A stretch of DNA of 64,000 nt from an uncultured Pseudomonadales bacterium. GTDB taxonomy: Bacteria; Patescibacteriota; Microgenomatia; UBA1400; PJMF01. The DNA lies in assembly GCA_964645645.1 (NCBI GenBank), contig CAZYBC010000005.1, positions 702 through 64,701 on the forward strand, written 5' to 3'. Under the pieces are notes generated by a model. It worked only from the letters and a program-made list of their open reading frames with translations, was not told where the DNA came from and searched no databases. A program made the position numbers and the translations under genes. Positions within the stretch are counted from its first letter, which is position 1, and each line of letters begins with the position of its first letter. This document shows, piece by piece, positions 22,659-25,795 of the stretch.

Positions 22659-23855
22659 TTAATTATTTTTTTTCTTTTTCCAAATAAAAGTGTTATAAGC
22701 GAAAAAATTCCAGAACATACCAATTAAAATGCCTACTACGGCAATAATAGTTCCTAAATCTAAATCATAATTAATGATTGGCAATTTAAATAAAATTGGG
22801 AAGACAGCCAAGCCATTTTCTTGAGTAGCAAATAATCTTTCTCCCAAAAAAGCTAAAAATTGTTGAATTAAAATAGAACCCCCGCTAGCAAAATTAAATT
22901 TAATAAATTTACTTGGGATTTCGCTAAGCTTAAGCTTTCTATCTGCAAAAGTCCAAATGTTATTAATAGCAAAATTAATTAAAACAGCACATTCAATAGC
23001 GGCAAAATAAGCAGCCTGATAAGGTAAAAATAATCTAAAAGCTTGTAAAGAAATTAGTTGAGTTAAGGCTCCAATTGTACCAACCACTAAAAATTTAAAA
23101 ACTCGGCTCTCTAAAATTTCTTGAGTTCTAACTTTAAATAAATAAGAAAGATTATTAATAATAATTTTAAAAGAATTAATTTTGCTAGTACCAATAGTGC
23201 GATCTTTAAAGTGAAAAGGTATCTCCGTAATTTTAAATTTCTTTTTAAAAACTTTATGCAAAAACACAATTTGAAAAGTATAACCAGTAAAACGTGGATC
23301 ATTCATTTCATTTCCCACTGCCATAAAAACTTTTTTAGTAATCGCTCTATAACCACCAGTCCAGTCAGCAATCTTAAAATCAGTTAAAATAATTCTAATG
23401 ATTAAATTACCAAACACACTTAAAAATTTGCGGTGAATACCCCAATTAGAAGGAATACTGCCACCTTTAATGTATCTTGAGCCTAAAACCATATCATAGC
23501 CATGATCAATTTTATCTAAAAAGGCAGGAATTTTAGTAGGATCATGTGATAAATCAGCATCAAATTCAAAAATCACATCAGCATCTAGCTTGTAAAAAGC
23601 CTGTTTCATGCCAGCTAAATAGGCAGCTCCTAAACCAGCTTTCTTCTTATTAATGAGCAGATGTAAATTTTTTTGTTTTTTTTGTAATTCTTCTACAAAT
23701 TCATAAGTTTTATCTGGTGAACTATCATCAACCACTAAAATATGACAATCCCAATGTTGAGAGACTTTTTTAAAAGCTTCTTGAACCGCTAAAGTAGTTT
23801 GTTCAATATTGCCTCTTTCATTATAAGTAGGGATAATCACAATCGCTTTTGGCAT
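22659..23855 (-). CDS. GT2 polyprenyl-monophosphate-sugar synthase (DPM1/Ppm1-like) fused to a C-terminal GtrA-like TM domain
   Basis: VIIPTYNERGNI...ILVVDDSSPDKT...KKAGLGAAYLAG...FEFDADLSHDP is the DPM synthase signature. The C-terminal ~120 aa hold 4 TM segments (FKFLVVGTIGALTQLISLQAF), GtrA-like. Confidence 0.75.
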   Translation of the reverse strand: MPKAIVIIPTYNERGNIEQTTLAVQEAFKKVSQHWDCHILVVDDSSPDKTYEFVEELQKKQKNLHLLINKKKAGLGAAYLAGMKQAFYKLDADVIFEFDADLSHDPTKIPAFLDKIDHGYDMVLGSRYIKGGSIPSNWGIHRKFLSVFGNLIIRIILTDFKIADWTGGYRAITKKVFMAVGNEMNDPRFTGYTFQIVFLHKVFKKKFKITEIPFHFKDRTIGTSKINSFKIIINNLSYLFKVRTQEILESRVFKFLVVGTIGALTQLISLQAFRLFLPYQAAYFAAIECAVLINFAINNIWTFADRKLKLSEIPSKFIKFNFASGGSILIQQFLAFLGERLFATQENGLAVFPILFKLPIINYDLDLGTIIAVVGILIGMFWNFFAYNTFIWKKKKNN

Positions 23856-23860
23856 AAATT

Positions 23861-24838
23861 TTAGTCTTGATTTTTACTTTCTTCAGATAAGTCAGCTTCA
23901 ACCATAATTTTCACTAATTCTCTAAAGTTAGTTTTTGGTTGCCAATTTAATTTTTGTTTGGCTTTGCTAGAATCACCAATTAATAAATCTACTTCAGCTG
24001 GCCGATCAAATTTAGGATTATGTTTATAATATTGTTGCCAATCACCTAATCCTGCTTCTTGGCAAGCAATTTCTAAAAATTCTTTAACACTATGAGTTTC
24101 TCCTGTAGAAATGACGTAATCATCAGCTTGATCTTGTTGAAGCATTAACCACATGGCTTCAACATAATCTTTGGCGTAGCCCCAATCTCTTTTTGATTCT
24201 AAATTGCCCAACTCAATAAAATCTTGTTTACCAAGTTTAATTCTGGCCACAGAATTAGAAATTTTACGAGTAACAAATTCTAAACCACGACGTGGAGATT
24301 CATGATTAAATAAAATCCCAGAAACAGCATAAAGATTATATGATTCACGATAATTAACGGTAATCCAATGGCCATAAACTTTAGCTACGCCATAAGGGCT
24401 ACGAGGGTAAAAAGGAGTGTTTTCATTTTGTGGAGTTTCTCTCACTTTACCAAACATTTCACTAGAGCTAGCTTGGTAGAAACGTGCATTTGGCGCAGCT
24501 AAACGCATGGCTTCTAACATTCTAGTTACGCCAATGCCAGTAAAATCACCAGTTAAAACTGGTTGATCCCAGCTAGCTTTTACAAAAGACTGAGCGGCTA
24601 AATTATAAATTTCATCAGGCTGAATATCTTGCAAAGCATAAGTTAAAGAATGTTGATCAATCAAATCACCAGAAATTAATTCTAAATTTGGATTATGAAT
24701 CAAGTTTCTAATTCTCGTAAAATTTTGAGTGCTAGTTCTTCTGGTTAAACCATAAACGCGATAACCTTTTTCTAATAAAAATTCAGCTAAATAAGAGCCA
24801 TCTTGCCCGGTAATCCCAGTAATAAATGCTTTTTTCAT
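23861..24838 (-). CDS. gmd: GDP-mannose 4,6-dehydratase
   Basis: [36 protein letters not shown]... and the SDR YxxxK motif ([11 protein letters not shown]). Full-length GMD-like (325 aa). Confidence 0.9.
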
Positions 24839-24847
24839 AAATACTTT

Positions 24848-25795
24848 CTAATTTTGATTTCTATAAAAATTTAAAATCCTTGCTAAAGTTGGCTTAATAT
24901 CTTTGGTTTCTTGCCAACCTAAAGTCTTTACCTTGTGATTATCGGCAATAATTTGCGCAGTATCAAGTGGTCTAAATTTTTGTGGATCAACTTCTACTTT
25001 AATTTTAACCTGAGCTAAACTAATTAGCATCTCCAACATTGCTTGGATGCTGTAACCACGGCCACTGCCAAGGTTATATGTTTCACCAATTTCTCCTTGA
25101 TTCATTAATAAAATATAAGCTTTGACAATGTCTTTAACATCAGAAAAATCCCGAATACTATTTAAATTACCTACCATGATTTTATCTTGTAATCCTTGTT
25201 CAATTTTTACTATTTGACTAGCAAAATCGGCAATCACAAATCCTGGAGCTTGTCTTTCGCCAATATGATTAAAAGGTCTCACTCGGATAATATTTAAGTG
25301 ATGAGTTTGTTGATAGTTATAAGCCAGCATATCTTGAATAACTTTAGAAACGGCATAGGGATTAACTGGCCCTAAAGGAGTATTTTCATCTAATGGTTTA
25401 TCTTGTGGCTGATAAACTAAAGCACTGCCAATAGCTAAAATTTTAGCTTTAGGCGTGAATTGTTTTACAGCATGCAGAAGATTCAACTGTAACACTAAAT
25501 TATTTTCTAAAGTTTCTTTTTCTGCTTCATAACTACTGCCCACTGCGGCGGTAGCAGCCAAATGATAAATTTGGGTAGCTTGCAATTTTTCTATTAATTC
25601 AAAGGTAGCTTGCTGGTTGGTTAAATCAACCTGGTGAATTTGATTAGAACCTAACAAATTAGCCACATAGCCACCATGGCTGGAAATATTGGTGACATGG
25701 ATATTTTTATATTGTTGGGCAATTAGTTCTTCAACGAGATGTGAACCAACAAAACCAGTGCCTCCAGTAATTAAAATTACTTCTTGTTTAGACAT
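24848..25795 (-). CDS. rmd: GDP-4-keto-6-deoxy-D-mannose reductase (GDP-D-rhamnose forming, Rmd-like)
   Basis: An extended SDR (GGTGFVGSHL, PYAVSKV). RPFNHIGERQAPGFVIADFASQI and RDFSDVKDI match Rmd (RPFNHIGPGQ...FVI, RDFLDVQDV) rather than the Fcl/WcaG signature. It lies immediately downstream of gmd. Confidence 0.65.
   Translation of the reverse strand: MSKQEVILITGGTGFVGSHLVEELIAQQYKNIHVTNISSHGGYVANLLGSNQIHQVDLTNQQATFELIEKLQATQIYHLAATAAVGSSYEAEKETLENNLVLQLNLLHAVKQFTPKAKILAIGSALVYQPQDKPLDENTPLGPVNPYAVSKVIQDMLAYNYQQTHHLNIIRVRPFNHIGERQAPGFVIADFASQIVKIEQGLQDKIMVGNLNSIRDFSDVKDIVKAYILLMNQGEIGETYNLGSGRGYSIQAMLEMLISLAQVKIKVEVDPQKFRPLDTAQIIADNHKVKTLGWQETKDIKPTLARILNFYRNQN

Follow-up and report, generated by a model that had tools for sequence, protein, structure and literature searches.

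A GtrA-fused DPM1-type synthase beside gmd and an Rmd-like reductase in a Patescibacteria glycan operon: probable transfer of mannose, and the less likely alternative of D-rhamnose

The stretch of DNA analysed (64,000 nucleotides, positions 702 to 64,701 of contig CAZYBC010000005.1; hereafter, the window) had a G+C content of about 30%, and its closest relatives were throughout Candidatus Pacebacteria, Woesebacteria or Microgenomates, of the Patescibacteria or Candidate Phyla Radiation (CPR). On its minus strand it carried a gene for a family 2 glycosyltransferase (GT2) of the DPM1 or dolichyl-phosphate mannose synthase (DPMS) type with a C-terminal GtrA-like domain (22659-23855; 398 aa), preceded by gmd, for GDP-mannose 4,6-dehydratase (23861-24838; 325 aa), and by a gene for a short-chain dehydrogenase/reductase (SDR) of the Rmd family, a putative GDP-4-keto-6-deoxy-D-mannose 4-reductase (24848-25795; 315 aa). 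The reductase gene and gmd were separated by 9 nt, gmd and the synthase gene by 5 nt, and the three open reading frames (ORFs), all on the minus strand, were as an earlier sequence-only reading had given them. That reading had proposed that GDP-D-rhamnose made by Gmd and the reductase is loaded onto polyprenyl phosphate by the synthase, with polyprenyl-phosphate mannose as the alternative product. The question raised by the locus is therefore which sugar the synthase transfers. It is predicted to be a polyprenyl-phosphate mannose synthase, and it probably feeds membrane glycosyltransferases of the GT-C class, with a GDP-6-deoxyhexose branch running in parallel.

The synthase and its donor site

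In the synthase, the GT2 catalytic domain (aa 6-178; 23322-23840, minus strand) matched Pfam PF00535 (E 1.5e-27), and the GtrA/DPMS transmembrane domain, GtrA_DPMS_TM (aa 254-392; 22680-23096, minus strand), matched PF04138 (E 1.6e-14). In a sequence search the top solved relative was Pyrococcus furiosus DPMS (PfDPMS; 5mlz, E 1.7e-45, aa 3-340), and the matches to the UDP-sugar enzymes ArnC (~1e-15) and GtrB (~1e-10) were far weaker. Human DPM1 was 33% identical to the catalytic domain (E 1e-35). Homology thus placed the protein in the DPM1/DPMS class of GDP-mannose enzymes, in agreement with the sequence-only reading, and many of its homologues were labelled dolichol-phosphate mannosyltransferase by JGI. 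At E ≤ 1e-20 the two homologue searches yielded 5,948 and 4,015 proteins; among the matches listed, 240 of 240 homologues combined a GtrA-like domain with a catalytic domain of the DPM1 type, and every one named by organism came from a CPR bacterium.

The fusion to a GtrA-like domain with four transmembrane helices, which had been singled out before, was present as described (PF04138), but it is not unusual: it is the known architecture of type-III DPMS, PF04138 itself being named 'GtrA/DPMS transmembrane domain'. An AlphaFold2 model of the synthase (alignment of 50 homologues; pLDDT 92.2, pTM 0.82) had 5mlz, 9ep0 and 5mm1 as its top Foldseek matches, which covered both domains (E 1e-24 over 394 columns). 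Hydropathy and the model placed the membrane helices at aa 251-273, 279-302, 310-342 and 367-391. The model also contained a beta-hairpin insert between the third and fourth helices (aa 344-366), predicted to point away from the catalytic domain; the PfDPMS alignment ended at aa 340, just before this hairpin, and a counterpart was not identifiable from the alignment. By analogy, it is possible that the GtrA-like module moves the lipid-linked sugar across the membrane, a role that has only been proposed, for PfDPMS (PMC12992685).

In PfDPMS (PMC5526996), Asp89 and His94 contact the mannosyl O2 and O3, and Asp91 and Gln93 are the residues for the metal and diphosphate. A triad described as 'conserved in bona fide DPMSs' (Arg117, Arg131 and Ser135) binds the acceptor phosphate, Arg117 and Lys178 are the residues near O6 and O4, and Glu12, Arg202 and Lys208 are the contacts associated with the A-loop. 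Mapped to this numbering, the GT2 domain of the synthase carried DADLSH (DxD), SRY, and the Arg and Ser residues for the acceptor phosphate. The equivalents of Glu12, Asp89, Asp91, His94, Arg117, Arg131, Ser135, Arg202 and Lys208 were all kept, and were invariant in 76 CPR orthologues. The synthase departed from the PfDPMS contact residues twice, with Ser for Gln93 and FQ for FK(178); position 93 was Ser in 65 of the orthologues and Gln in 11. Both departures are the residues of human DPM1 (DADLSH, GYVFQ; NP_003850.1, exact sequence look-up), and the catalytic domain therefore has the canonical DPM1 signature. An altered sugar pocket was considered and rejected, as two differences that coincide with human DPM1 residues carry no signal. 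Human DPM1, the type-II catalytic subunit, likewise has DADLSH, (S/T)RY, RK..S, GY(V/T)FQ and DR..G.SK; it has no membrane domain of its own and relies on DPM2 and DPM3, whereas the synthase carries a fused GtrA-like domain. The synthase was the only protein of the window with the full DPMS signature, which both small GT2s (20323-21075 and 35470-36180) lacked. Its donor is predicted from homology to be GDP-mannose.

Where the strict type-III motif reads 89-DADxQHPP-96 the synthase had DADLSHDP, and the counterpart of Lys178 (178-KIL-180) in that definition was, by HMMER alignment, the Gln of GYTFQ. Of the two residues that make up the type-III polar pocket, one was kept: the equivalent of Asn277 (N294) was invariant, and Asn248 was replaced by Gln in 76/76 orthologues. 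For the region of the gating residue Phe338 and the fourth transmembrane helix, the phmmer alignment ended before that helix, and candidate F-x-x-N motifs were found near aa 381-388. As judged from alignment and predicted model, the synthase falls outside the strict 2026 motif definition of type III, yet the type-III architecture and fold are common to both.

Gmd and the Rmd-like reductase

Gmd scored 450.6 bits against TIGR01472, above the curated equivalog cut-off of 415, and matched Pfam GDP_Man_Dehyd with E 2.6e-137. Its catalytic motifs were intact (SSSEMFG, with Ser/Thr-x-Glu, and PYGVAKVYG, with YxxxK) and aligned with those of other Gmds.

The top solved relative of the reductase was 2pk3, the RMD of Aneurinibacillus thermoaerophilus (E 1.6e-56; 300 residues aligned, with 40% identity), followed by 6x3b, the RMD of Pseudomonas aeruginosa (E 4.6e-39). 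These are the two solved GDP-6-deoxy-D-lyxo-4-hexulose / GDP-6-deoxy-D-mannose reductases, and both have been characterised experimentally. The next SDR families (GDP-heptose dehydratase, GalE and GMD) followed from ~1e-29 (3e-29). GxxGxxG and YxxxK were present. The stretches RPFNHIGERQ and RDFSDVKDI, from which an Rmd rather than an Fcl identity had been argued, were both found in the protein, and the motifs RPFNHIG and RDFxDVxD were common to it, 2pk3 and 6x3b. Identity with Fcl, the GDP-L-fucose synthase, was rejected (79.9 bits for NF047922, whose cut-off is 500), as was identity with a UDP-sugar epimerase, the best matches being RMDs by a wide margin; the Rmd-type assignment was upheld. 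A curated Rmd equivalog model was absent among the NCBIfam matches of the protein.

Homology supports a GDP-6-deoxyhexose as the predicted product of Gmd and the reductase, one that would most likely have, at C4, the stereochemistry of GDP-D-rhamnose. The talose synthetase is another RMD-like SDR. GDP-4-keto-6-deoxymannose is also the precursor of GDP-6-deoxy-D-talose, so that the pathway branches at this point (PMC9415975), and gmd and rmd have been noted before in Patescibacteria-associated sequence (PMC12911398).

The systems of A. thermoaerophilus and P. aeruginosa, the nearest solved relatives, likewise consist of gmd and then an RMD-family SDR; the window reductase is at most ~40% identical to the RMDs of these organisms, and its product is predicted from that kinship. 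In P. aeruginosa, GDP-D-rhamnose is consumed by the cytoplasmic GT4 rhamnosyltransferases WbpX, WbpY and WbpZ, and not by way of a lipid monophosphate. GT4 enzymes of the WbpX/Y/Z type were not specifically recognisable in the window, where NCBIfam gave sub-threshold generic matches only.

Conserved gene order and the choice of donor

Scanning species-representative genomes gave 80 loci, of which 66 had enough upstream flank (at least 3.2 kb) to be assessable. Homology showed gmd and an Rmd-like gene upstream of the synthase gene in 66/66 of these loci, and gmd directly adjoined the synthase gene in 52/66. In the remaining 14/66, a group of the Woesebacteria type at ~50% identity, a UDP-glucuronate decarboxylase (UXS) gene stood between the two (for example L056:5833-6780, E 1.5e-87 to human UXS1, 4gll; other such loci included L038, L053, L059, L064, L079 and L080). 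A close UXS was absent from the window itself. The conserved block also kept trmD, rmlD, rmlB and an LCP gene in order, and ugd was syntenic in nearly all related loci. As trmD, an unrelated gene, was equally syntenic, much of this conservation reflects inherited gene order.

Sampling was widened with the WWE3 homologue of locus L081 as query, and seven more contexts were inspected. Three loci of the Beckwithbacteria type (L083, L086, L087) had ugd, a Gmd paralogue, gmd, the synthase gene, a GT-C gene, a GT2 gene and an MptA_B-like gene. In five loci (WWE3 L081 and L088; L082, L084 and L085) no gmd was found within 6-8 kb upstream (1.8 kb in L081). All five carried nearby small GT2s, L082, L084 and L085 also had GT-Cs of the PMT_2 type, and L084 had a UXS-like SDR gene two genes upstream of the synthase gene. 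In both WWE3 loci (L081:1842-6057 and L088:8001-12242) the DPMS-GtrA homologue was followed by a small GT2, ugd and a GalE/TviC-like SDR gene, with no gmd nearby, an arrangement that presumably resembles polyprenyl-phosphate uronic acid systems such as Rhizobium RgtE/LpsL.

A neighbour-joining tree grouped the CPR synthases together (100% bootstrap) in two clades. Every member of clade A was linked to gmd and rmd (100% bootstrap), and clade B (97% bootstrap) contained the gmd-linked Beckwithbacteria type together with WWE3 and other members that had no neighbouring gmd. The gmd linkage is thus old or recurrent, yet it can be lost with the synthase kept. In the Beckwithbacteria type, the Rmd slot was occupied by a second Gmd-family protein (L087:6062-7036, L083:5710-6732, L086:6076-7044) that was 48-49% identical to the window Gmd. 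The L087 and L083 copies scored 342-349 bits against TIGR01472, under the cut-off of 415, and the best PDB match of the L087 copy was the GMD 1rpn (6e-93). The catalytic Glu of SSSEMFG was replaced by Lys (TSAKIFG) in 3/3 paralogues, with Tyr and Lys kept; the paralogue is possibly a 4-reductase that arose from a Gmd and took the place of Rmd.

The probable route is one in which the DPM1-type GT2 would move mannose from GDP-mannose onto polyprenyl phosphate at the cytoplasmic face of the membrane, and the GtrA-like four-helix domain would hold, and possibly flip, the resulting polyprenyl-phosphate mannose. On the outer side of the membrane, downstream GT-Cs (PMT_2-type and MptA/B-like) would use it as donor. 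Gmd and the Rmd-family reductase would divert part of the GDP-mannose to GDP-D-rhamnose, and Ugd (plus Uxs in some relatives) would supply UDP-glucuronic acid (UDP-GlcA) or UDP-xylose (UDP-Xyl). GDP-D-rhamnose and the UDP-sugars would feed cytoplasmic GT2 and GT4 enzymes of the 45-kb glycan region, with its Wzx-type flippase and LCP ligase. The GT2 and GT4 enzymes of the window, Wzx and LCP can account for the use of GDP-D-rhamnose, dTDP-L-rhamnose and UDP-GlcA, and a shared pool of GDP-mannose accounts for the linkage of gmd and synthase equally well.

Several observations weigh against this assignment of mannose to the synthase. The donor sugar is unreadable from sequence: mannose and D-rhamnose are alike in configuration at C2-C4 and differ only at C6, and Arg117, which lies near O6, is needed for phosphate binding. 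The non-GT-C glycosyltransferases of the operon are only the synthase and one small GT2, so that a view of the operon as a self-contained module, for which the arn operon is a model, would pair GDP-D-rhamnose with the synthase. A pair of gmd and reductase genes stood directly upstream of the synthase gene in both major CPR clades; the different reductase type in the Beckwithbacteria slot suggests that gmd and a partner are kept next to the synthase gene by selection, and the recurrent pairing, which drift alone would seem not to explain, is consistent with a functional link. The genes for GDP-mannose synthesis, manB and manC, were not found in the window.

The foremost alternative is that the synthase takes GDP-D-rhamnose, solely or beside GDP-mannose, and forms polyprenyl-phosphate D-rhamnose that would be flipped by the GtrA-like domain and transferred outside by GT-Cs. 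In its favour, gmd and the synthase gene are only 5 nt apart in a compact operon, and the linkage to gmd and a reductase held in all assessable relatives and, with the other reductase type, in a second clade. The MptA_B label of the precomputed table was confined, among the loci sampled, to those linked to gmd; by analogy, the parts of the operon (nucleotide-sugar enzymes, lipid-phosphate sugar synthase, flippase-like domain and GT-C) parallel those of the arn operon; and the residues that contact O2 and O3 would suit any manno-configured sugar. A vertebrate dolichyl-phosphate mannose synthase is said to use GDP-6-deoxymannose in vitro, which a literature search did not confirm. The donor-site residues, however, were unchanged relative to human DPM1 and PfDPMS, and when residues co-varying with gmd linkage were separated from those following phylogeny, three alignment columns tracked gmd, the same number as for the control pattern, with none at a donor contact. 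The intervening UXS genes and the UXS-like SDR of L084 indicate that neighbours do not predict the substrate, the five loci with no gmd in the flank examined retain the synthase, and the equally syntenic trmD indicates that much of the conservation is inherited gene order. If the synthase made a rhamnose lipid alone, the window would be left with no candidate for a mannose lipid, and many of its GT2 and GT4 enzymes could consume GDP-D-rhamnose instead. Among the papers searched, none gave a precedent for a polyprenyl-, undecaprenyl- or dolichyl-phosphate rhamnose. Rhamnose transfer by the synthase is consequently considered unlikely: the polyprenyl-phosphate D-rhamnose donor put forward by the sequence-only reading found no specific support, and the flow through polyprenyl-phosphate mannose, which it had offered beside it, fared better.

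It is quite unlikely that the reductase instead yields GDP-6-deoxy-D-talose, or reduces another GDP-4-keto sugar, so that the operon supplies a different 6-deoxyhexose. The modest identity to characterised RMDs (only ~40% or less), the absence of a curated Rmd model among the NCBIfam matches and the precursor shared with the talose derivative are compatible with such a product, and against them stand the wide margin by which the two characterised RMDs were the best solved relatives and the motifs RPFNHIG and RDFxDVxD common to both. Use by the synthase of another nearby nucleotide sugar, such as UDP-GlcA or UDP-Xyl, is very unlikely. The presence of ugd in the operon, and of uxs directly upstream of the synthase gene in some relatives, would fit it; the similarity to DPMS was far greater than to ArnC or GtrB, the full DPM1 motif set included the Asp and His in contact with the C2 and C3 hydroxyls of a manno-configured sugar, and the small GT2 of the operon would be a more natural user of UDP-sugars. 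As uxs or ugd was as near the synthase gene as gmd in some lineages, the neighbourhood marks a general nucleotide-sugar module and not a substrate relationship, and polyprenyl-phosphate mannose remains the preferred product.

The operon, the wider window and known systems

The three genes belonged to a minus-strand run of eight ORFs, from 27115 to 17562, with intergenic gaps of -4 to 24 nt and the order ugd-rmd-gmd-DPMS-GT-C-GT2-GT-C-GT-C. Across 16.5-32.5 kb, promoter-like sites were fewer than the shuffled expectation; terminator-like sites numbered 14 (7.8 ± 3.4 expected) and were intragenic, with none at an operon boundary. Co-transcription of the eight genes, as one cell-envelope glycosylation operon of a Pacebacteria/Microgenomates genome, is the best explanation of this arrangement.

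The first gene of the operon, ugd, encoded a UDP-glucose 6-dehydrogenase (25802-27115, minus strand) with the N, central and C domains of Pfam UDPG_MGDP_dh and scored 433 bits against NCBIfam TIGR03026 (cut-off 190). Its ORF began at TTG and overlapped the divergent trmD (27069-27767, plus strand) head-to-head by 47 nt; the real start of ugd is probably an internal Met near 27076, and that of trmD likewise an internal Met. The tRNA methyltransferase gene trmD lay beside the glycan cluster in most CPR loci examined, including L082, L084 and L085, in which gmd was not found. Between trmD and rmlD the window had an insert (27760-28439, minus strand) that resembled a toxin-antitoxin pair, made up of a gene for a PIN-domain protein (PF01850, E 2e-12) and, upstream of it, a small ORF with a weak DUF6290 match. 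The insert was missing from L002 and from most relatives, where rmlD came directly after trmD.

Directly 3' of the synthase gene was a gene for a PMT_2-like GT-C membrane glycosyltransferase (21100-22650, minus strand) with about ten hydrophobic segments; it scored 26.0 bits against PMT_2 (E 1.2e-5), just below the cut-off of 26.1, and was syntenic in relatives. The small soluble GT2 that followed (20323-21075, minus strand; PF00535, E 1.3e-23) had 5mlz as its best PDB match (2.4e-14), followed by ArnC (4e-11), and had no predicted transmembrane segment. Its identity to human DPM1 was 30%, and where DPM1 has DADLSH it had DFDQST. The small GT2 at 35470-36180 was ArnC/GtrB-like, also a relative of DPMS, and had no predicted membrane helix. 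These two had been described before as additional DPM1-like GT2s: their kinship with DPMS, ArnC and GtrB was confirmed, and possession of the DPMS signature was not. The next gene of the operon encoded a polytopic membrane protein (19088-20320, minus strand), and the last a GT-C (17562-19091, minus strand; PMT_2 E 2.9e-12, PMT E 1.2e-10) that overlapped it by 4 nt. The label PF26314 MptA_B_family, which would make the protein resemble GT-C mannosyltransferases, was attached, in a precomputed table, to the near-identical gene of L001 and to the syntenic genes of L083, L086 and L087. It was not reproduced for 19088-20320, for which Pfam and PDB phmmer searches were empty even at lenient thresholds, so that this label comes from the precomputed table only.

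A further glycan region of ~30 kb (32211-63948) held a Wzx-type flippase (33964-35457), a GalE-like SDR (61758-62672) and the small GT2 at 35470-36180. Its other glycosyltransferases comprised five further GT2s, two GT4s and at least four GT-Cs of the PMT_2 type, and it also encoded a PTPS_related membrane protein and several polytopic proteins with no family match. The window as a whole held at least six PMT_2-type GT-Cs, which need a lipid-sugar donor; that several GT-Cs follow the synthase, as stated earlier, was borne out by these matches. No GT4 or GT2 of the window was specifically nameable as a D-rhamnosyltransferase by its NCBIfam matches, which were sub-threshold and generic. Upstream of the operon lay rmlD and an rmlB-like dehydratase gene of the dTDP-L-rhamnose pathway and a gene for an LCP-family ligase (28524-30417 and 30924-32069, minus strand); neither rmlA nor rmlC was seen anywhere in the window. 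With rmlD and rmlB beside gmd and rmd, the genome may make both L- and D-rhamnose donors.

The synthase is closest in architecture to PfDPMS (type III; 5mlz, 5mm0, 5mm1, 9ep0), which also combines a GT2 domain, two interface helices and a GtrA-like four-helix domain. It differs in being bacterial (CPR, 30% GC), in its departures from the strict motifs, in the extra hairpin at aa 344-366, and in its acceptor, presumably a bacterial polyprenyl phosphate and not dolichyl phosphate. The three-component systems GtrABV, ArnC/ArnEF/ArnT and PpgS/Rv3632 are made of the same parts, a synthase, a GtrA-type module and a GT-C (reviewed in the context of extracytoplasmic glycosylation in PMC11127046). The window encoded all three together, with the synthase and the GtrA-like module at 22659-23855 and GT-Cs at 21100-22650 and 17562-19091, and, as in the arn operon, these lipid-glycosylation parts shared an operon with nucleotide-sugar enzymes. 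In contrast to the three-component systems, the synthase and the GtrA-like module were one protein, the synthase was of the DPM1 class and not of the UDP-sugar GtrB/ArnC class, and the GT-Cs were several. Mycobacterial Ppm1 with MptA, MptB and PimE likewise joins a polyprenyl-phosphate mannose synthase to GT-Cs, which in the window include one labelled MptA_B (precomputed table, not reproduced); the domain organisation of Ppm1 differs from that of the window synthase.

If polyprenyl-phosphate D-rhamnose were the product after all, it would be the first lipid-monophosphate 6-deoxyhexose donor and a new class of lipid-linked sugar donor. On the preferred reading, with polyprenyl-phosphate mannose as product, the locus is an ordinary, strongly conserved CPR envelope-glycan operon. 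Type-III DPMS has been reported from hyperthermophilic archaea only (Gandini et al. 2026; PMC12992685), and the CPR homologues qualify the statement that confines type-III-like enzymes to those organisms. They would also provide mesophilic bacterial material with which flipping of the product by the membrane domain can be tested. These very small CPR bacteria, which have not been cultivated, probably make D-rhamnose or a related GDP-6-deoxyhexose, and the locus indicates that they rely on a route of lipid-linked mannose and GT-Cs for the glycosylation of their surface.

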